NCBI GenBank assembly: GCA_017536475.1
Contig: JAFXHH010000007.1
Coordinates: forward strand, 55,609-119,608
Direction of reading: 5' to 3'
DNA from: Clostridia bacterium
Lineage (GTDB): Bacteria > Bacillota > Clostridia > Oscillospirales > CAG-272
Length of the DNA: 64,000 nt
The notes beneath the pieces are model-generated. The model saw nothing but the letters and a program-made list of their open reading frames with translations, made no database searches and had not been told where the DNA came from. Positions 4,159-58,645 of this stretch are shown piece after piece (positions within the stretch are counted from its first letter, which is position 1; each line of letters opens with the position of its first letter). A program made the position numbers and the translations under genes.

Positions 4159-5778
4159 CTATTCAAACGGCTTAAATCTTGAGGCGATAGCCATCGCCAC
4201 CTTAACGCCGTCAACCGCGGCGCTCGTAATACCACCGGCATATCCCGCACCCTCCCCGCAGGGATAAATGCTCTTTTTGCCAATGGCTCTCATATCCTCT
4301 CCGCGCAAAATTCTCAGCGGAGATGACGTCCTCGTTTCAGCACCCGATAAAAGCGCGGGATCCGAGGCAAATCCTTTTATTTTTTTATCAAAAGAGGCAA
4401 GCCCGTAACGCAACGAGTCACAAACGAAGGACGGCAGTACGTCATCCATTGATGCGACCTTGAAATTATTGCCTCCCATATAGGTCGGAAATACTGAACT
4501 TGGTTCACTTCCCGATCTTTTATTCATAAAATCTCCAACGGTCTGTACGGGCACGGCGTATCCGCCCCCGCCCGCCGCGAAAGCACGACGCTCTATCGAT
4601 CTTTGAAATTCTATTGCTCCGAGCGCGAGACTTCCGTCTACCGCCTCGTAATCCTCGACTCTGACCGAGACCGCGACTGCGGAGTTTGAGTTTTCACCGT
4701 CACGGGCAAAATGGCTCATTCCGTTGACGACTACTCCGCCCTCCTCGCTTGCCGCCGCGACGACCTCGCCGCCGGGGCACATGCAGAAGGTGTAAACTCC
4801 CCTCTCGCCTCGAGTATCGGAAAGCGCGTATTCAGCCGCGCCCAAAGCGGGCTCACCGGCAAACCGTCCGTACAAAGCCTCCTCGATAAAGCTTCTCTTG
4901 TGCTCTATTCTCACGCCGACCGATATCGGCTTGGGAATTATGTCAAACTGACTTTCAATAAGCGTACGGTAGGTATCACGAGCGCTGTGACCGAGCGCGA
5001 GCACGACAGACGAAGCAAGAAAATCGCCCTTGCTCGTCGAAGCCTCGACAAGCCCGTCGCTTCTCTCACGGATACCCGTCAGCTTGCAACGGTATATGAC
5101 CTCGCCGCCAAGCTTCTCTATCTGCCCGAGTATATTGCCGACCACCGTTCTCAAAACGTCCGTGCCCACGTGCGGCTTCGCCTTGACCGTTATCTCCTTC
5201 GGAGCACCGAATTTAACGAGCGTTTCAAGCACGTAAGCGCATTTGGGATCGTTGATCCTCGTTAGCAGCTTGCCGTCCGAAAACGTACCCGCGCCGCCCG
5301 CACCGAACTGAATATTAGACTCGGTGTCAAGAATATGCTCCGAATAAAATCTTTCAAGCGATGCCACTCTGTCGGCAACGCTGTCTCCGCGGTCGATAAT
5401 TATCGGCTTGTATCCGTTTTCGGCAAGTATCAGCGCGCAGAACATACCCGCAGGCCCCATTCCGACCACAAGAGGTCTTTTCTGCATCGTTTCGTTTCCG
5501 ACCTTGATCTCAAGCTCCTCGGTCGTCACAGTCCTTGCTCCAAGCTTGGCTATGCGGTCGCATTCCTTTTCTGCGAGATGATCGAAGCTGACGAGCACGG
5601 AATAGATCAATCGGATATCGTCCTTGTGCCTTGCGTCAACAGACTTTTTGCAGATTGCTAACCCACATCTGTCGCACGCTATCCCAATTCCCCTCAGCCT
5701 TTTCTCTACCACACGCAACGCATCGGAGGGATCGGCAGAAAACGGCAGGGATATTCCGTCAAATATATATTTTCTCAT
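4159..5778 (-). CDS. FAD-dependent dehydrogenase of unknown substrate (COG2509-like)
   Basis: 539 aa with dinucleotide-binding motif GMGPAGMFCALILAENG...IIDRG. Its ATG overlaps the cdaR stop (TAATG). Confidence 0.75.
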   Translation of the reverse strand: MRKYIFDGISLPFSADPSDALRVVEKRLRGIGIACDRCGLAICKKSVDARHKDDIRLIYSVLVSFDHLAEKECDRIAKLGARTVTTEELEIKVGNETMQKRPLVVGMGPAGMFCALILAENGYKPIIIDRGDSVADRVASLERFYSEHILDTESNIQFGAGGAGTFSDGKLLTRINDPKCAYVLETLVKFGAPKEITVKAKPHVGTDVLRTVVGNILGQIEKLGGEVIYRCKLTGIRERSDGLVEASTSKGDFLASSVVLALGHSARDTYRTLIESQFDIIPKPISVGVRIEHKRSFIEEALYGRFAGEPALGAAEYALSDTRGERGVYTFCMCPGGEVVAAASEEGGVVVNGMSHFARDGENSNSAVAVSVRVEDYEAVDGSLALGAIEFQRSIERRAFAAGGGGYAVPVQTVGDFMNKRSGSEPSSVFPTYMGGNNFKVASMDDVLPSFVCDSLRYGLASFDKKIKGFASDPALLSGAETRTSSPLRILRGEDMRAIGKKSIYPCGEGAGYAGGITSAAVDGVKVAMAIASRFKPFE

Positions 5779-6803: not shown

Positions 6804-7759
6804 TCCTTACGCTCACCTCCGTTCTCTGTATTTTCAGGATCAGCGCCGTTTCCGCTTGTCGCAGAGCTCTTTCCCGTAGTGCTCTCGGCAACCGTGCGTC
6901 CCGTAAGCAGCTTGAAAAGATCGTCCTTCAGGTCTCCCGATTTGTGCACACTTTCCTTTTCGTAATGTCTCTTAAGAAGCTTATTGTTTGCAACGGATAT
7001 AGTTCCCGTCTCCTCGGAAACGACGACCACGATAGCGTCGCTGACCTCGCTTATCTTGAGTGCGGCACGGTGACGTGTGCCAAGACCCTCAACCATCGGT
7101 CCGTTTTCGGCAATGGTCTTCGATTTGCTTGAAGCACAAACTATTCTTCCGTCTCTGATGATGACTGCGCCGTCGTGAAGCGGAGATTTATTAACGAAAA
7201 TATTACAAAGCAGCTCGTGCGACACTACGGCATCGATAGGAGTGCCCTCGGACATCTGATTTCTCAGAGTTCCCTGTCTTTCGATAACGATCAGCGCGCC
7301 CTCTCCCTTACCCGAGAGATCGAATGCCGCCTTACATATCTCGTTTACGTAGTGAAGTATCCTCTCATCGTCGGTGATGTGACGGTTTCTGAATCTTTTT
7401 ATATTGTCGGACGTAGTCGCACCGAATTCCTCGAGAACGTCGCGAAGCTCGGGCTGAAACAGTACGCAAAGCGCAATAATACCGACCGCATAGAAATTCT
7501 TCAGTATCGAGTTTATCGCCACCATATTGAAAATATCGCTTATAACGTACAGTACGATCAGTAATCCCAGACCGATAACGGCTCTTCCCGCATGTCTGTC
7601 CCTTATGAACTTGTAGACGATATAGATCAGACCCGAAAGCAGCAATATATCCACTACGTCCACGAACGTTATCTGGGATACCGAAAACCATACGTAGTCC
7701 TTAAAAAGCTGGACGATATTATCCCATAGTGATATCGAAAGTTTTATGTTTTGAAGCAT
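6800..7759 (-). CDS. cdaA: Diadenylate cyclase CdaA (DisA_N domain)
   Basis: Three N-terminal TM helices, then DAC-domain motifs LHDGAVII and GTRHRAAL. The track ORF starts at a TTG (7780). I prefer ATG 7759, which has GAAAGGA 8 nt upstream. Confidence 0.88.
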   Translation of the reverse strand: MLQNIKLSISLWDNIVQLFKDYVWFSVSQITFVDVVDILLLSGLIYIVYKFIRDRHAGRAVIGLGLLIVLYVISDIFNMVAINSILKNFYAVGIIALCVLFQPELRDVLEEFGATTSDNIKRFRNRHITDDERILHYVNEICKAAFDLSGKGEGALIVIERQGTLRNQMSEGTPIDAVVSHELLCNIFVNKSPLHDGAVIIRDGRIVCASSKSKTIAENGPMVEGLGTRHRAALKISEVSDAIVVVVSEETGTISVANNKLLKRHYEKESVHKSGDLKDDLFKLLTGRTVAESTTGKSSATSGNGADPENTENGGERKE

Positions 7760-28079: not shown

Positions 28080-28189
28080 CTCCATTCCTCCGCGCGCGGC
28101 GGCACAAATATGATTGACGAATCTTGCCAACGGCAAAATTCTCGCGTGAAAAAGCACAATTACCTGACGGCATCAATCAATTTTCACGC
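28080..28189 (-). repeat. Element E copy between the two DUF4330 genes
   Basis: It has the same three-hairpin order, with stem 1 GCGTGAAAA/TTTTCACGC and stem 2 GAATTTTGCC/GGCAAGATTC. The 5' arm of stem 1 overlaps the last codons of paralog B, and the 3' end supplies GGAG 6 nt upstream of the paralog A ATG. Confidence 0.75.
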
Positions 28190-28776
28190 AAATCTCCCGA
28201 CAGTTCAACGACGGTTCCGTTTACTATCCGATCGTCGATCCTGAGAGTATAATCGCTTCCGACCGCCACTCTTTCGTCGCCGAGATAATACCCCTCGTCG
28301 CCCTTATGATTTGCAGTTACCTCTACGGTCAGAACCGCAAGGCAGTTATCTTCAGAAACTTCAACGGCAGTGATCTTTCCAAAGTATACGGTACTGCCGT
28401 CGATATCGAAATAGAGCTCTTTATTCTCTATTGACAGATATTCTTCCGCGTTTTCTTCGCACGGAACGGCAAACGAATATTCAATGCCGACGCTTTCATA
28501 ATCCGTTGAGAAATATCTGAACAGATGGTACGCACCGACTATTACTCCCGCAACTATAGCGAGCATCAATACGGTTATGATGATGTCAACTATCAAGGGA
28601 AGCTTTTTGCGTGACTTTGAATTGCGGCTTTTTTCACTTTCCGAGGGGTCCTTTGCTTTTACTGTGCGAAGTCCCACTATGTAATCGAGCTGTGCGCCGC
28701 CTGACGATTTTTCGGAATCCGCTTTTTTCAGATTCTTTGCGGTCTCGCTCTGATCATTTTTCTTGAGTTCAGGCAT
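28177..28776 (-). CDS. DUF4330-like single-pass membrane protein (paralog B)
   Basis: 199 aa with a basic/Ser-rich N-terminus, one TM helix and a beta-rich C-domain. Confidence 0.65.
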   Translation of the reverse strand: MPELKKNDQSETAKNLKKADSEKSSGGAQLDYIVGLRTVKAKDPSESEKSRNSKSRKKLPLIVDIIITVLMLAIVAGVIVGAYHLFRYFSTDYESVGIEYSFAVPCEENAEEYLSIENKELYFDIDGSTVYFGKITAVEVSEDNCLAVLTVEVTANHKGDEGYYLGDERVAVGSDYTLRIDDRIVNGTVVELSGDLREN

Positions 28777-40426: not shown

Positions 40427-40502
40427 TGGAGCTGGTAATCAGAATCGAACTGATGACCTCGTCATTACCAATGACGTGCTCTACCGACTGAGCCATACCA
40501 GC
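40427..40502 (-). tRNA. tRNA-Thr (anticodon GGU), CCA encoded
   Basis: Hand-folded 76-nt cloverleaf: acceptor GCTGGTA/TACCAGC, D arm GCTC-AGTCGGT-AGAGC, anticodon arm CGTCA-TTGGTAA-TGACG, T arm ATCAG-TTCGATT-CTGAT, then TCCA. Confidence 0.9.
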
Positions 40503-40673: not shown

Positions 40674-40690
40674 GTGTTATCATATTTAAA

Positions 40691-40956
40691 CGCGATGACC
40701 AAGAGGAGTAGGTCGCAGGTCTCTTTCAGAGAGTGGATGGTTGGTGAAAATCCACAGGGGCGGCGGTTGAAGGTAGCTTGCGAGTGGTGCGGGTGAAGGC
40801 TTTTTTGCTGAGTAGTCTGCGACGGTGGCGACGTTAGAGCTTTTGAGTGGTGTTTGTCCGATTTTTCGGGCGGATATGGAATCCGCCCCTACGGCAGATG
40901 CAAATTAGGTGGTACCGCGTGTTGACGTCCTGATGTTTTTACATCGGGGCTTTTTT
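40691..40956 (+). promoter_or_regulatory. T-box riboswitch leader of valS (stem I, T-box sequence, terminator/antiterminator)
   Basis: The 5' end is GCGATGACCAAGAGGAGTAG. It has an AGAGA box, GGTGAAAA, T-box motif AATTAGGTGGTACCGCG (40903-40919), and a terminator CCTGATGT-TTTT-ACATCGGG followed by a T-run (40929-40956). The candidate specifier is GUA (Val) within GAAGGUAGC; that assignment is tentative. Confidence 0.88.
40868..40892 (-). repeat. REP-like GTAG-headed palindrome inside the valS T-box leader
   Basis: The + strand reads GGGCGGAT-ATGGA-ATCCGCCC-CTAC. The arms match those at 33565 and the loop differs. Confidence 0.65.
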
Positions 40957-41401: not shown

Positions 41402-44047
41402 ATGAACAGTTACAATGAATTACCGAAGACGTATTCGCCGTCCGAGTTTGAGGACAGGATATACGCCGAGTGGTGTGAAAAGGGATATTTCACGCCCGAC
41501 AAGAACAACAACAATCCCTCTTTTTCGATAGTAATTCCCCCTCCCAACGTCACGGGTCAGCTCCACATGGGTCACGCACTTGACGAGACCTTACAGGACA
41601 TTCTCGTTCGTTACAAGAGAATGCAGGGCTTCAACACGCTTTGGGTTCCCGGCACCGATCACGCGGGCATTGCTACGCAGATCAAGGTTGAGGAGAGACT
41701 TCGCGTTGACGAGGGATTGACAAGATACGATCTTGGTCGTGAGAAGTTCCTTGAGCGCGTTTGGGGCTGGAAGGACACATACGAGGCTCGCATTACGGGT
41801 CAGCTCAAGAAGCTCGGCGCTTCGTGCGACTGGACAAGACAGAGATTTACCATGGACGAGGGCTGCTCAAAGGCGGTTCGCGAGGTCTTCGTAAATCTTT
41901 ACGACAAGGGACTGATCTATCGCGGTCACCGTATCATCAACTGGTGCCCTCGCTGTCTGACTGCGCTTTCCGACGCGGAGGTCGAATACAAGGATCAGCC
42001 CGGATATTTCTGGCACATCAAGTATCCCATCATCGGTGAGGACGGCTACGTTGAGGTTGCTACCACCCGTCCCGAGACTATGTTCGGTGATACTGCGGTC
42101 GCGGTCAACCCCGAGGATGAGAACACCAAGCATCTTATTGGCAAGAAGGTTCTTCTCCCCATCGTTAACAGAGAGATTCCCGTTATTGCGGACGATTACG
42201 TTGAGATCGGCTTCGGTACGGGCTGCGTTAAGATCACGCCCGCGCACGACCCCAACGACTTCCTCGTCGGTCAGAGACACGACCTTGAGCAGATCAAGGT
42301 CATGAACGACGATGCGACCATGAACGCTTACGCGGGCAAATACGAGGGTATGGACAGATACGCTTGCCGCAAGGCTCTCGTTGCCGATCTTGAGGCGCAG
42401 GGTTATCTCGTTAAGGTTGAGCCTCACGACCACAACGTTGGCGTTTGCTACCGCTGCGGTACGACGGTCGAGCCTCTCACAAGCGACCAGTGGTTCGTTA
42501 AGATGAAGCCTCTCGCAAAGCCTGCGATCGAGGCGGTTGAGTCGGGTGAGATCAATTTCGTTCCCGAGCGTTTCTCGAAGAACTACTTTAACTGGATGAA
42601 CAATATTCTCGACTGGTGCATCTCCCGTCAGCTCTGGTGGGGTCACAGAATTCCTGCCTTCTACTGCGACGAGTGTGGCGAGATGACGGTTTCCAAGGTC
42701 GACATCGATACCTGCCCCAAGTGCGGCGGCAAGGTTCATCAGGACGAGGACGTGCTTGACACCTGGTTCTCGTCGGCTCTTTGGCCCTTCTCTACTCTCG
42801 GTTGGCCCGAGCAGACCGAGGATCTCAAGAGATATTATCCCACCGACGTGCTCGTTACGGGCTACGATATAATCACCTTCTGGGTATCGCGTATGATCTT
42901 CTCGGGTCTTGAGCACATGGATGCAAAGCCCTTCTCCACCGTATTTATTCACGGTCTCGTACGCGACGCGCAGGGCCGCAAGATGTCCAAGTCGCTCGGT
43001 AACGGTATCGATCCTCTCGAGGTCATCAAGCAGTACGGCGCGGATGCGCTCCGCTTTGCTCTTGCTACGGGCAACTCCCCCGGAAACGATATGAGATTCT
43101 CCGACGAGAAGATCGAGGCGGCGAGAAACTTTGCTAACAAGCTCTGGAACGCGTCACGATTCGTTCGTATGAATCTGACGATTGATGAGATCAAGCTCCC
43201 CGACGCCGACAAGCTCGCGATCGAGGACAAGTGGATACTCAACGAATTCAACGCGCTTTGCGAAAACGTCGTTACCAATCTTGACAACTTTGAGGTTGGC
43301 GTTGCGCTTGGTGCTATCTACAGCTTTGCTTGGGATATCTTCTGCGACTGGTATATTGAGCTCGCAAAGGCTCGTCTTAACGAGAAGGACACCGAGGCAA
43401 ATCTCGTCTGCCAGAACGTTATCGCATACGTTCTTGAGGGTATTCTCAAGCTGCTCCATCCCTTTATGCCCTTTATTACCGAGGAGATATATCAGGCTCT
43501 GCCTCACGAGTGCGAGAGCATCATGATCTCCGAGTATCCGAAGGCTTGCGAGTCGCTCTGCTTCTCTGCCGATGCCGAGAAGATGACCAAGATCATCGAC
43601 GCTATCAAGGCGATCAGAGCGCGCAGAAGCGAGATGAACGTTCCTCCCTCCAAGAAGGCTAAGGTTTATCTTGCTACGAGATACGCTGACGTATTTGCTA
43701 CCGCAGAGGCGTTCTTTGCGCGTCTTGCGTCCGCTTCCGAGCTTATCGTTGCCGATAAGTTTGCCGAGGACGAGGTCAGCGCAGACAACGCAGTACAGAT
43801 AATAACCGACTCCGCTACGATCTTCCTTCCCCTTTCCGATATCATTGATTTTGAAAAGGAAAAGGCTCGTCTTGAGGGAGAAAAGAAGAAGCTTGAGGGC
43901 GAGATCGAAAGAATCGAAAAGAAGCTTTCCAACGAGGGCTTCGTTGCAAAGGCTCCTGCCGCAGTCGTTGAGGGCGAGAGAGCGAAGATGGCAAAATACC
44001 GCGAAAATCTCGAGGGTATTCTCGCGGCTATCGGCAAGCTGAAGTAA
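41402..44047 (+). CDS. valS: Valine--tRNA ligase
   Basis: 881 aa with HIGH-type LHMGHAL, KMSKS and a C-terminal coiled coil. A T-box leader lies upstream. Confidence 0.97.
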
Positions 44048-44081
44048 AATGCTCGTCTGTATCTGCTGAAAAATCAAATTG

Positions 44082-44116
44082 TTATTTGTGCCGCTAATGC
44101 GGCGGAAGGAACTAAT
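44082..44116 (+). repeat. Partial element E (3' module only: TTTGTG + GC hairpin + SD) upstream of the serine hydrolase gene
   Basis: TTATTTGTGCCGCTAATGCGGCGGAAGGAACTAAT-ATG compares with CTGTTTGTGCCGCCGTAAACGGCGGATGGAGTTCGAA-ATG at the DUF3737 gene. Confidence 0.6.
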
Positions 44117-49364: not shown

Positions 49365-49483
49365 CTCCACAAATAATAATCGGTGAATTTTGCCATCGGC
49401 AAAATTCGTGTGTGAAGCAGTTGAATTGCCTATAAATGCAAAGTGCCTTTCACGCTGAACTCCACTACGCCGCTTGTGCGGTA
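49365..49483 (-). repeat. Element E copy between degV and yloV (one unit lacking hairpin 3, plus hairpin 3 of a second unit)
   Basis: It aligns to the 55336-55566 unit across ...CACGCTGA / GTGAAGCAG / GAATTTTGCC-N3-GGCAAAATTC / TAATCG.TG. Its end supplies GGAG 7 nt upstream of the yloV ATG. Confidence 0.8.
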
Positions 49484-49518
49484 TCTCAAATATTTTTTGA
49501 CTTCGGTAGTATACCGTA

Positions 49519-54480: not shown

Positions 54481-55329
54481 TTATATTTTCACCGCGCACT
54501 CTATTTTGCAGGTGGATGATTTTTTATGCTTTTCGTCCCAGATGATCTCGCCGATGCTGTCTGCTCTGACAAAGCCGCTGACGGGATTCTTGACGCTGAC
54601 GATATCGCCGTTTACCGTCGCTCTGACCTCGCTGTTTTCAAACGAGAGGTCGCAGCCCTCGGTGGTGCAGTCCTCCAAGACAAGATTCTTGCAATAGCAG
54701 AGGGGCTGGGTGCCCTTGATATGACAACGGACGAGTCGCAAATTTTCGGAATACCAGCCGAGATATTCGCCTTCGATGACACTGTCGTAAACGGTGACGT
54801 CCTTAGCGTGCCAGAAGGCATCCTTGGTCTTGAGATTGGAATTTCTGATCTCGACGTTTTCGACGTACTGGAAGGAATACTTGCCAGAGAGGGTAAACTC
54901 GGAAAGCTGCATATTCTTGCACTCAAAAAATGGATATTGGGAGTTAACGGTGGTGTTTTTGACGGTAATATCCGAGCATCTCCAACCGAACTCCGCGCTA
55001 TCGACGTCGCACTCGGAAAGCGTGACGTTTTTGCACTCACGGAGCGCTTTTATGCCGTGGAGCGTGCTTTTTTCGATATTTACGCGATCGTCGTACCAAA
55101 GTGCAGCTCGGCAGGTCTCGGTCATGGTGATGTTGGATATTTCTGCGCCGTTTACGTGCCAAAAGGGGTAACGCAATTCAAACAGACAGCTCTCAACCTT
55201 GATGCGTCTGCACTCCTTTAGCGCACTTTCGCCGTCTGCTTCGCCTGCGAAGGTGCAATTTATGATCTCTGCATCCTCAACGCCGTACAGGGCGCGTTCT
55301 TCGTCGTAGTTTTGGTTTATGTATTTCAT
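54481..55329 (-). CDS. DUF3737-like beta-helix protein
   Basis: Repetitive beta-helix-like sequence with GESALKE and RYPFWH motifs. ATG 55329 (GGAG 6 nt upstream) is preferred over the TTG at 55362 inside the repeat. Confidence 0.7.
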   Translation of the reverse strand: MKYINQNYDEERALYGVEDAEIINCTFAGEADGESALKECRRIKVESCLFELRYPFWHVNGAEISNITMTETCRAALWYDDRVNIEKSTLHGIKALRECKNVTLSECDVDSAEFGWRCSDITVKNTTVNSQYPFFECKNMQLSEFTLSGKYSFQYVENVEIRNSNLKTKDAFWHAKDVTVYDSVIEGEYLGWYSENLRLVRCHIKGTQPLCYCKNLVLEDCTTEGCDLSFENSEVRATVNGDIVSVKNPVSGFVRADSIGEIIWDEKHKKSSTCKIECAVKI

Positions 55330-55335
55330 TTCGAA

Positions 55336-55566
55336 CTCCATCCGCCGTTTACGGCGGCACAAACAGTAATCGTTGAATTTTGCCGACGAGGCAAAATTCG
55401 TGCGTGAAGCAGTATAATTACCTATAAAAGTGACCTTACCTTCACGCTGATCTCCATCCGCCGTTTACGGCGGCACAAACAGTAATCGTTGAATTTTGCC
55501 GACGAGGCAAAATTCGTGCGTGAAGCAGTATAATTACCTATAAAAGTGACCTTACCTTCACGCTGA
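55336..55566 (-). repeat. Two perfect tandem copies (116-bp period) of a three-hairpin intergenic element (here called element E), ending in the SD of the DUF3737 gene
   Basis: Positions 55336-55451 and 55452-55566 match base for base apart from one junction base. Each unit contains hairpins GCGTGAAG...CTTCACGC, GAATTTTGCC-N5-GGCAAAATTC and CCGCCG-TAAA-CGGCGG (mRNA sense). Confidence 0.9.
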
Positions 55567-55589
55567 CTTCCTTGGTTTATAAAATCAGG

Positions 55590-55622
55590 TGAAAACAACT
55601 TATGGGCGAACAAGGTTCGCCC
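55590..55622 (-). terminator. Probable terminator after recR
   Basis: Stem GGGCGAAC-CTT-GTTCGCCC followed by AUAAGUUGUUUU. Confidence 0.5.
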
Positions 55623-55632
55623 GTTTAAGCTT

Positions 55633-56232
55633 TTAAAAATCTCGTCTTCCCTCGAGGGCACGGAACAGTGTTATTTCGTCCGCGTATTCAAGGTCGCTTC
55701 CCATCGGCACGCCGTACGCGAGCCTTGTGACCTTTATTCCAATCGGCTTGAGCAGTCGGGCAAGATACATTGCCGTGACCTCGCCTTCGACCGTTGGATT
55801 GGTCGCAACTATGACCTCCTCGATCTCTCCCTCGTTAAGTCTCGCGAGCAGCTCGCGTATCTTGAGCTTTTCGGGAGTGACGCCGTTGGTGGGCGAGATA
55901 ACTCCGTGGAGGACGTGATAAAGTCCCTTATATTCCCTTACCTTTTCCATAGATATGACGACCTTGGGGTCGGAGACTACGCAGACGGTTTTTCTGTCTC
56001 TTTGCAGGTCGGCACAGATCGGGCAGATCTCCTTGTCGGTTATATTCTGACAGATCGGGCAAAGGTGTATCTTCGCTTTCGCGTCAAGAATAGCTGCGGC
56101 GAATTCGCTTGCCTCCTCGTCGGTCATATCGAGCACCGAAAACGCCATTTTCATAGCGTTCTTTCTGCCCACGCCGTCAAGTCTGCCGAACTGCTCCGCA
56201 AGCTTCTGGAGCGACTCGATATATTCTGCCAT
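55633..56232 (-). CDS. recR: Recombination protein RecR
   Basis: Cys4 motif CPICQN...CPIC and a Toprim domain. Confidence 0.95.
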   Translation of the reverse strand: MAEYIESLQKLAEQFGRLDGVGRKNAMKMAFSVLDMTDEEASEFAAAILDAKAKIHLCPICQNITDKEICPICADLQRDRKTVCVVSDPKVVISMEKVREYKGLYHVLHGVISPTNGVTPEKLKIRELLARLNEGEIEEVIVATNPTVEGEVTAMYLARLLKPIGIKVTRLAYGVPMGSDLEYADEITLFRALEGRRDF

Positions 56233-58331: not shown

Positions 58332-58645
58332 GCAACCGTCTGTTGCAAAACGAGACCATACACCGCAAAGTCGAACCTTATCTCCACGCGATCTTCATAC
58401 CCACTGCTCAAGGCAGGCACCCTCGCGGCACATCGGGTTAACCGCTTAATGCTGCTTGGTTCCCCATCTGACATGGTTCACAGCTCCCGATTGCGCAAGA
58501 CCCGCCTCTCAACACAGAGGATATGACTCAATTCGTAAAGACTCAGCCCTCAAATGCGGGATCCACCCCTGCTGTAGCGGATTTCAGGTACAGGGCTCCG
58601 CTAAATCCCCGGCTGGTATGACCTCGTTTCGCAGCACACGGCTGC
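58332..58645 (-). ncRNA. ffs: Signal recognition particle RNA, large Bacillus/Clostridium type with Alu domain (ends approximate, +/-15 nt)
   Basis: The minus strand contains GGAUUUAGCGGAGCCCUGUACCUGAAAUCCGCUACAGCAGGGG (Alu-domain helices 3/4) and CAUGUCAGAUGGGGAACCAAGCAGCAUUAAG...GAUGUGCCGCGAGGGUGCCUG (domain IV). The 5' and 3' ends pair over about 30 nt. It lies upstream of dnaX, as in Bacillus. Confidence 0.85.

Follow-up and report, generated by a model that had tools for sequence, protein, structure and literature searches.

A three-hairpin repeat family in the spacer between Shine-Dalgarno sequence and start codon of genes from gut Clostridia

The tandem between recR and the DUF3737 gene

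The window analysed here is a stretch of 64,000 nucleotides (nt) of the Clostridia bacterium contig JAFXHH010000007.1, in which a perfect tandem of a non-coding unit stands between recR and a gene encoding a DUF3737 protein. The unit belongs to a family of ~113-118 nt elements that nearly always lie inside the spacer between a Shine-Dalgarno (SD) sequence and the start codon, and that carry an SD of their own. Tandem Repeats Finder reports a period of 116 nt, 2.0 copies, 100% matches and zero indels over positions 55336-55566, and the 115-nt pattern of the unit returns two exact matches on the minus strand (55336-55450 and 55452-55566), with 0 in shuffled sequences. A single A (55451) forms the junction between the distal and proximal units. 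Read on the minus strand, which is the sense strand, each unit consists of UCA-GCGUGAAG...CUUCACGC, then GAAUUUUGCC-N5-GGCAAAAUUC, and lastly UUUGUG-CCGCCG-UAAA-CGGCGG-AUGGAG. Downstream of the proximal unit, TTCGAA leads to the DUF3737 ATG at 55329-55327, and the terminal GGAG of this unit (55336-55339) is the DUF3737 SD, with TTCGAA as a 6-nt spacer. An original prediction made from the window alone had described this perfect 2 x 116-bp tandem of three-hairpin units with its final GGAG 6 nt before the ATG, and Tandem Repeats Finder, exact matching and folding all agree with it. The features of the junction are as follows.

54481-55329, minus strand: DUF3737 gene, presumably using the SD of the element (open reading frame (ORF) and Pfam PF12541, E = 5e-118)
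55336-55450, minus strand: proximal tandem unit (exact 115-nt match and family hidden Markov model (HMM))
55342-55357, minus strand: hairpin 3 (CCGCCG-TAAA-CGGCGG; fold prediction), with ATGGAG immediately after it; distal copy at 55458-55473
55358-55374, minus strand: conserved A/U-rich single-stranded linker AACGATTACTGTTTGTG; distal copy at 55474-55490
55375-55399, minus strand: hairpin 2 (GAATTTTGCC-N5-GGCAAAATTC; fold and family alignment); distal copy at 55491-55515
55402-55447, minus strand: hairpin 1 (GCGTGAAG...CTTCACGC, apical part variable; fold prediction); distal copy at 55518-55563
55422-55445, minus strand: predicted mini-ORF in hairpin 1, GTG AAG GTA AGG TCA CTT TTA TAG (MKVRSLL, then stop); distal copy at 55538-55561
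55452-55566, minus strand: distal tandem unit, in sense TCAGCGTG...ATGGAG (exact 115-nt match; family HMM score 99.9, E = 4e-30)
55567-55573, minus strand: native SD-like AAGGAAG, directly upstream of the distal unit and 6 nt ahead of the GTG of the element
55604-55622, minus strand: GC-rich terminator-like hairpin GGGCGAAC-CTT-GTTCGCCC past the recR stop (55633-55635)

The unit folds into three hairpins (-43.3 kcal/mol, z = -4.1), and its antisense strand folds nearly as well (z = -4.3) because the hairpins are palindromes. The A/U-rich AUUACUAUUUGUG linker lies between hairpins 2 and 3, and the predicted mini-ORF of both tandem units starts 6 nt past the preceding SD. The GC-rich hairpin after recR is kept in four relatives, and the terminator scan did not call it because its T-run is interrupted. 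The original prediction had the units filling the gap between the recR terminator and DUF3737: the tandem does stand there, but ~38 nt containing the SD-like AAGGAAG separate it from the post-recR hairpin. AAGGAAG is presumed to be the original ribosome-binding site of DUF3737. A consensus scan, itself weak evidence, finds no sigma-70-like promoter on the sense strand and no terminator in the tandem; a promoter cassette or an attenuator is therefore not supported.

Position, junctions and distribution of the family

The family was retrieved with one degenerate pattern, covering the 3' arm of hairpin 1 and hairpin 2, against a species-representative genome collection. This search returns at least 113 loci in 26 metagenome-assembled genome (MAG) assemblies among the matches listed; the MAGs are labelled Clostridia, Eubacteriales or Oscillospiraceae and come mostly from ruminant and other animal guts. 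A family HMM built from 78 copies reports 130 copies at E < 1e-10 in the listed loci and the window, and all family counts given below rest on these loci, some of which are named here by an L number. The same HMM finds 0 copies in 80 loci (230 kb) around DUF3737 homologues of other gut bacteria. Plasmid and phage collections searched by blastn with the unit, and viral contigs scanned with the pattern, give no match.

About 122 of the 130 copies, spread over the 26 MAG assemblies, are in sense orientation directly before a start codon, or within a tandem that is. A total of 83 copies end in GGAG and have the start of a long ORF no more than 12 nt further on; their SD-start spacer is 6 nt long in 66 cases and 7 nt long in 10, and 80 of 82 starts are ATG. 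A variant 3' end, with hairpin 3 either expanded by ~45 nt or missing, characterizes 24 copies, in which an SD and a start codon still follow. Seven copies are canonical save for a point-mutated SD, a short ORF or a shifted start, eight are upstream members of tandems, two reach contig ends and one is unclear. The last five represent one shared old insertion at the extreme 3' end of an ORF, and they are the sole within-ORF copies in the census. Among the matches listed, no copy of the 130 runs antisense to its neighbouring gene or stands between two convergent genes. Sense orientation, a fixed distance to the start codon and provision of the SD, as proposed from the window, thus hold for the family. 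The census of copies, orientation and distance that the original prediction had suggested, run here with the pattern and the HMM, finds no antisense copies and one off-target site among the matches listed. The randomly inserted repeat that had been judged less likely at the outset is excluded.

Copies in opposite orientations occur on one contig within 9 kb (CAJGCF010000042.1) and within ~120 kb (JAZKYL010000113.1). Since both orientations coexist on single contigs and in the window, orientation follows the gene, and not the replication strand or replichore. For the 124 copies with enough upstream sequence, the upstream gene is co-oriented in 94 and divergent in 20, another unit lies upstream in 8, and no gene is present within 600 nt in 2. 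The stop codon of the co-oriented upstream gene falls within 30 nt of the element or inside it in 56 of these 94 cases, including 18 inside it, indicating that the typical site is an intercistronic junction. Downstream, the 79 distinct proteins return 135 Pfam families with a maximum of 2 members per family: the downstream genes are functionally unrelated and form no regulon. Pfam also confirms the window genes as originally named (DUF3737, DAK2/YloV, DUF4330, serine hydrolase), together with their lack of a common function.

Both junctions of the element are uniform. In almost every copy, AGCGTG is directly preceded by a purine-rich tract resembling an SD, the sequence of which varies among copies (aaggag, cggagg, aagagg, aaggac and others); the duplex energy of the upstream flank with the anti-SD averages -6.65 kcal/mol, versus -2.07 kcal/mol at random positions, and this tract stands 6 nt from the element GTG in 63 of 105 copies. 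On the left, the element begins 2-4 nt past the native SD, and its 5' end Y-AGC-GTG-AAA-G sets the GTG 6 nt past this SD. On the right, the junction is GGAGATTA plus 2 nt, and the 3' end (hairpin 3-AAT-GGAG-ATTA) sets a consensus SD 6 nt before the host start codon, a geometry from which the downstream gene is presumably translated using the SD of the element. The two bases after the native SD and the two before the ATG have ordinary spacer composition; in the left flank, bases -3 and -2 are variable and -1 alone is Y. Conservation of Y-AGCGTG on the left and of GGAG-ATTA on the right reaches 79-91%, compared with 35-57% in control genes. The frame opened by the GTG ends within hairpin 1 in 90% of 114 distinct copies, and the predicted mini-ORF has 6-7 codons in 85 of them, with the consensus MKVTSxL. 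The +1 frame, like the GTG frame, stops early, and the +2 frame stops within hairpin 1 in 39% of copies; a design with stops in all three frames was considered and dropped, the +2 frame being open through hairpin 1 in 61%.

At least 11 genes, with 75-98% protein identity, are filled in one genome and empty in another, and the empty orthologous sites read as an ordinary SD-spacer-ATG. One syntenic block offers reciprocal cases: L104 and L021 have the element at a gene where L052 lacks it, and the neighbour gene is the reverse. In filled/empty pairs with alignable flanks, the upstream tract of the filled copy is the SD of the empty ortholog. Thus the empty L092 reads ...GGAAAGGAtggaatgat followed by ATG, and the filled L101 reads ...GGAAAGGAcgac-element-attaaat followed by ATG; likewise, the empty L016 reads ...cAGGTactgat followed by ATG, and the filled L002 reads ...aAGGTttc-element-attaat followed by ATG.

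As a separate observation, the empty L092 site (7300-7380, plus strand) reads GGAAAGGATGGAATGATATG, of which the segment GGAATGAT is faintly like the 3' end of the element, GGAATGGAGAT; this likeness could be chance or a deletion footprint.

The number of units at the recR-DUF3737 junction varies among relatives: there are 0 in L115-L117, 1 in L063, and 2 identical ones in the window and in L114, with a 5'-truncated remnant and 1 unit in L109, and a remnant and 2 non-identical units in L106. The single unit of L063 is 98% identical to the window unit and has the same flank and SD-like tract upstream. An exact look-up of the DUF3737 protein returns solely an ENA contig identical to the window, again with two identical units. 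Three more distant syntenic recR-DUF3737 junctions (71-76% identity) span 13-40 nt with a plain SD and are element-free, and a metagenome scan with the DUF3737 protein (best hit 76% identity) yields outgroup empty sites, but no close strain variant and no same-species filled/empty allele. Because unit number varies among close relatives, the perfect dimer is a recent local event at a locus of unstable unit number; it stems from a very recent duplication, or from re-insertion into the SD-spacer made by the first copy. Homogeneous, lineage-specific subfamilies also exist: the 16 copies of the JAZNER subfamily are 88% identical within their genome versus 77% to other genomes, and 27 of 54 copies have their nearest neighbour in their own genome, versus 6.3 expected.

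Several structural variants recur across the loci. A ~45-nt structured insert (CGGGG-TT-CCCCGAAG-loop-CTTTTGGGG-TT-CCCG) builds a long stem extension on hairpin 3 in L035, L057, L066, L077, L082, L083, L096, L103 and L112, and also in L010, L015, L037, L073 and L075; it stands at different genes in different genomes and is seen inside elements alone. Hairpin 1 may bear in its 3' half another ~45-nt insert, ending in CCACTACTCGCCTGTGGCGTAA (L042, L046, L056 and L080; at least 3 loci, in several genomes), and this variant too is seen inside elements alone. Lastly, tandems devoid of hairpin 3 comprise three units in L099 (740-1030) and two in L065 (3490-3680); each unit ends in GGGAGATCAG, and the array stands ahead of a small membrane-protein-like gene.

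Within the window, nhmmer returns the related copies that had been placed at 49.4, 28.1 and 44.1 kb, co-oriented with their downstream genes as originally stated.

28080-28189, minus strand: diverged full copy between two DUF4330 paralogues (HMM positions 2-113, E = 2.3e-24)
44082-44116, plus strand: solo 3' module (TTATTTGTG-CCGC-TAAT-GCGG-CGGAAGGAACTAAT; HMM 44070-44116, positions 68-110, E = 0.004)
49368-49456, minus strand: family copy without hairpin 3 (nhmmer; HMM positions 1-90, E = 1.6e-20)
49460-49494, minus strand: decayed solo 3' module (TATTTGAG-ATACCGCACAAGCGGCG-TAGTGGAG; weak HMM match, positions 81-113)

The window loci are 5-21 kb apart; at all of them the element is co-oriented with the gene starting just downstream, and copies occupy both strands. 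At 49.4 kb, a DegV gene lies upstream and a Dak2/FakA-like gene downstream (ATG 49357-49355, Pfam). The copy first delimited as 49365-49483 is real, but it actually combines a 5'-truncated remnant, the 3' module at 49460-49494 that adjoins the upstream side, with a unit without hairpin 3; the ortholog of this site in L063 has the 3' module alone. The GGAG of the 28.1 kb copy stands 6 nt ahead of the ATG at 28073-28071, and the upstream DUF4330 paralogue (28177-28776, minus strand) enters the element by ~12 nt, its stop being a TGA inside hairpin 1. The 44.1 kb module is located downstream of valS, just ahead of the ATG (44117) of a beta-lactamase-fold hydrolase gene (Pfam). The solo 3' modules at 44.1 and 49.49 kb look like microhomology deletions of full units.

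One shared copy sits away from a start codon (L108, 1560-1765), and the same site is occupied in L050, L069, L110 and L017, that is, in five species. An SD-like AAGGGCAAC precedes it, at the extremity of a nagA-like ORF, which now ends ...FKGN-SVKVTTF and stop inside hairpin 1. The metG gene lies 57 nt downstream of the copy and is provided with a separate hairpin and SD. In all five species, hairpin 3 and the SD of this copy are decayed, GGCGGAATGGAG being changed to GGCGTAATAGAG or lost. Because this off-target site has an SD-like AAGGG and no start codon, the target determinant is probably the SD-like tract and not the ATG. We infer from the same site that hairpin 3 and the SD decay when the SD of the element serves no start codon.

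RNA structure and sequence constraint

Over 79 copies, 96% of the stem cells are paired, with 97.5% for the outer stem of hairpin 1. In 57 of these 79 copies, the fold of the sense strand is superior to that of the antisense strand (p = 8e-5). The apical part of hairpin 1 is weakly structured (mean z = -0.42), and the loop of hairpin 2 varies from 3 to 7 nt. Covariation is slight, which weighs against a classical regulator: the stems are almost invariant, and double changes affect 4 of 29 pairs (17 cells), a number exceeding that of a shuffle control that ignores relatedness. Most of these changes turn A-U into G-C at the hairpin 1 base (54 vs 12, with 13 non-Watson-Crick). The structure-preserving variation on which the original prediction relied is thus thin, and the stem 3 versions taken for compensatory changes are length variants of one GC-rich sequence.

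Constraint is more apparent in the comparison of 16 orthologous pairs, which are non-independent and stem in many cases from the DUF3737 locus. In these pairs, the 4-fold sites of the adjacent gene are 73% identical; identity rises to 100% for the 5' arm of hairpin 1 and the SD, 97% for the linker and 95.5% for the hairpin 3 stem, and amounts to 85% for the apical part of hairpin 1 and 50-60% for the loops of hairpins 2 and 3 (60% for that of hairpin 3). Such free loops beside fixed stems and linker argue against a neutral decay of the resident copies. The succession of a hairpin, an A/U-rich linker, and a hairpin with an SD between two cistrons would fit intercistronic processing and end protection, by analogy with known arrangements.

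Partition-function folding gives the SD an accessibility of 0.40, versus 0.36 in 173 control genes. As the SD is no more occluded than in ordinary genes, control by a riboswitch or a thermometer is argued against, and this logic was rejected. Rfam returns no match on any copy in cmscan searches at the gathering threshold over the window and 17 loci, or in E-value mode over the tandem and the metG-leader copy. This empty result, the unrelated genes and the open SD agree with the earlier view that the repeat is neither a named RNA family nor a classical metabolite riboswitch. In the literature on SD-associated repeat families, no description of this element was found.

Origin, retention and relation to known elements

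The filled and empty sites, the varying unit number, the homogeneous subfamily and the recurring variants together argue for an insertion element of extreme target specificity. The tandem probably represents two copies of a ~113-118 nt non-coding, non-autonomous insertion element specialised for the SD-start spacer, with an added RNA-level role possible. Integration would be site-specific and asymmetric, recognising the SD-like purine tract rather than the ATG. The joined ends of the element (GGAGAT-YA-GCGTG) would mimic an SD-N6-start site; such mimicry would fit an excised or copied unit recombining with SD-spacers and would explain the frequent tandems. The original prediction opposed a functional RNA module to a selfish repeat. 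Its first half agrees with the constraint signature, which fits a function, but the choice itself was a false one, the filled and empty sites showing an insertion element.

Several points weigh against an insertion element. The 1.08 Mb examined yielded neither a transposase or recombinase as partner nor an autonomous copy, which would be marked by a long ORF starting from the element GTG. The element has no terminal inverted repeats: its ends AGCGTGAAAG and AATGGAGATTA lack complementarity, and its only inverted repeats are the internal hairpins. There is no clear target duplication either, the correlation of the flanking YA being weak (Fisher p = 0.009, few independent cases). The left and right 8-mers match at 5.06 positions versus 4.88 in shuffles (p = 0.015), and the quality of GGAG differs on the two sides, which excludes a simple duplication; the flank comparison does not support GGAGNTYA, envisaged as a target duplication of 8 nt. 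The polarity of gains and losses comes from parsimony alone. The exact retrieval pattern misses decayed or off-target copies that lack it, and it makes the invariance of the hairpin 1 and 2 stems partly a matter of construction. Finally, the constraint test draws on interdependent pairs, and the conservation between orthologs could result from host-level function, from gene conversion or from repeated hot-spot insertion.

A host-beneficial cis-acting RNA module, intercistronic or in the 5' leader, serving processing, stability or translation, with persistence owed to that function and spread as a secondary matter, is essentially the view of the original prediction and is compatible with an insertion element; as the principal explanation it appears rather doubtful. 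The strict sense orientation at start codons speaks for it, as does the preservation of stems, linker and SD at 95-100% while loops (50-60%) and 4-fold sites (73%) drift. The better folding of the sense strand and the decay of the 3' module where the SD is unused point the same way, and one-sided changes in the putative hairpin 3 extension keep G-U pairs valid in the sense strand only. Its layout of a hairpin, an A/U-rich linker, and a hairpin with an SD also resembles processing or stabiliser arrangements known to us. However, the downstream genes share no function, their orthologs do well without the element, covariation is minimal, the SD is not sequestered and the apical part of hairpin 1 is barely structured. 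Besides the absent Rfam match, the fact that close relatives differ in having 1 or 2 units at one gene speaks against a role that depends critically on dosage.

Propagation without dedicated mobility, in which SD regions would sporadically exchange sequence by illegitimate recombination, template switching or gene conversion and so spread the leader passively, with slippage creating the tandems, is improbable. GGAG-like direct repeats at both ends could mediate slippage, tandems and 5'-truncated remnants are common, and the lack of any enzyme in the 1.08 Mb agrees with such a process, by which putative mobile promoter (PMP) families are thought to be partly formed (PMC3488235). Nevertheless, a 4-nt microhomology is unlikely to give four full units and two remnants at four loci of 64 kb with uniform junctions. 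The uniform positions of the left and right junctions, the distinct structural subfamilies over many loci and genomes, and the homogeneous, burst-like subfamily in one genome all oppose it. Even less probable, and indeed very unlikely, is a leader that responds to a ligand or to temperature, as a riboswitch or thermometer does, or else an operator bound by a global regulator in double-stranded DNA. The element is structured, conserved and located at gene 5' ends, and hairpin 2 is a perfect 10-bp palindrome; yet there is no Rfam match and no terminator, the genes are unrelated and SD accessibility equals that of control genes. Moreover, the half-sites are 3-7 variable nt apart, which a dimeric DNA binder would not tolerate, and most copies are inside operons and not at promoters.

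Returning to the insertion element, most of its copies lie between co-oriented, closely spaced genes, where it acts as an intercistronic spacer cassette. Its persistence may be explained if selection, after insertion, keeps the hairpins and the A/U-rich linker, and the most likely reason for this retention would be that, in the mRNA, the hairpins and linker insulate the two cistrons. Hairpin 2 would protect the 3' side, the linker would offer a site to a nuclease or protein, and hairpin 3 with the SD would provide 5' protection and the initiation site. We tentatively propose, as a possibility that seems less likely than the insertion element itself, an undescribed class of mobile elements that home to translation-initiation regions, leave the host SD on a decoy ORF of 6-7 codons, supply a replacement SD, and then persist under host-level selection as cassettes that insulate or process intercistronic RNA.

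Comparison with known systems clarifies the position of the family. Palindrome-associated elements of the IS200/IS605 type and REP/REPIN-RAYT systems have no terminal inverted repeats or target duplication, bear end hairpins, are strand-specific and give rise to non-autonomous high-copy derivatives; the present family, hairpin-bearing and without terminal inverted repeats, resembles them in these respects. However, IS200/IS605-type and REP elements require a fixed tetra- or pentanucleotide on the 5' side of the insertion, have similar end hairpins and follow the replication strand, with REP at gene 3' ends, whereas here the abutting left bases vary, no hairpin resembles another in sequence and orientation is that of the gene. 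An IS200/IS605 or REP/RAYT type was rejected on these three counts. Like miniature inverted-repeat transposable elements, the family is small, non-coding, multi-copy and polymorphic for presence and absence, but it lacks their terminal inverted repeats. An integron attC array was also rejected, the copies being dispersed among housekeeping operons on many contigs and not gathered in a single array. Intercistronic stabilisers, such as the 5' stem-loop and STAB-SD of Firmicutes or the intercistronic expression elements of plastids, are locus-specific sequences. By a plausible functional analogy, the element shares with them a location between cistrons, hairpins around an A/U-rich stretch and a strong SD near a 5'-proximal hairpin; it differs in being a dispersed repeat family.

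The pneumococcal BOX, RUP and SPRITE, the enterobacterial ERIC and the Correia elements of Neisseria are small, structured, multi-copy, non-coding and co-transcribed with their neighbours (PMC3049150). These repeats may be modular, tandem-expanded and lineage-specific, as here, and can alter expression or mRNA processing (PMC3049150). They have terminal inverted repeats, both orientations, and enrichment between convergent genes or a variable gene distance, whereas the present family, which lacks terminal inverted repeats and carries an SD, has a single orientation and a single position in the SD-start spacer. The PMP class is the closest described phenomenon. PMPs are presented in their survey as highly similar non-coding stretches directly upstream of non-homologous genes, within and across related genomes, and in a Treponema brennaborense family conservation extends over positions -120 to -5 counted from the start codon (PMC3488235). 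Their mechanism is given as unknown, with the suspicion that large families represent mobile elements of a non-autonomous type (PMC3488235; Matus-Garcia, Nijveen and van Passel 2012). The present family similarly places one non-coding stretch before non-homologous genes of one genome, with the start-codon geometry of the T. brennaborense family; it differs by the absence of a sense sigma-70-like promoter, according to a consensus scan that is weak evidence, and by its mostly intercistronic location. The survey, as read here, does not describe a retained native SD, a replacement SD, a mini-ORF or filled/empty junctions. The family is of the small dispersed-repeat or mobile-leader kind, set apart by its near-absolute targeting of the SD-start spacer and its replacement SD.

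If the proposed class is real, a transposon would have supplied the ribosome-binding site from which ~5-10% of the genes of these gut Clostridia are translated, and a sizeable gene fraction in an uncultured ruminant-gut Clostridia clade would have its ribosome-binding site replaced by a repeat; the window has four loci in about 60 genes' worth of sequence. The family would be the clearest case yet of a bacterial repeat targeting the translation-initiation region itself, and the 'mobile promoter/leader' phenomenon would gain a testable anatomy, made of a retained native SD, a decoy mini-ORF, a replacement SD, and maintained hairpins and linker. The question would then arise of which enzyme recognises an SD-like tract in DNA. 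The element would also be a natural portable hairpin-plus-SD cassette, as well as a source of gene-start mis-annotation and of MAG assembly breaks.

Other RNA features lie near some copies. Rfam matches unrelated to the repeat in the window are a T-box leader (40686-40935, plus strand) upstream of valS (41402-44047), a tRNA gene (40430-40502, minus strand) and a large signal recognition particle RNA (58356-58621, minus strand). In L016, a lysine riboswitch is located at 4883-5052 (plus strand), and a copy of the element stands ~1 kb downstream of it, ahead of a different gene.

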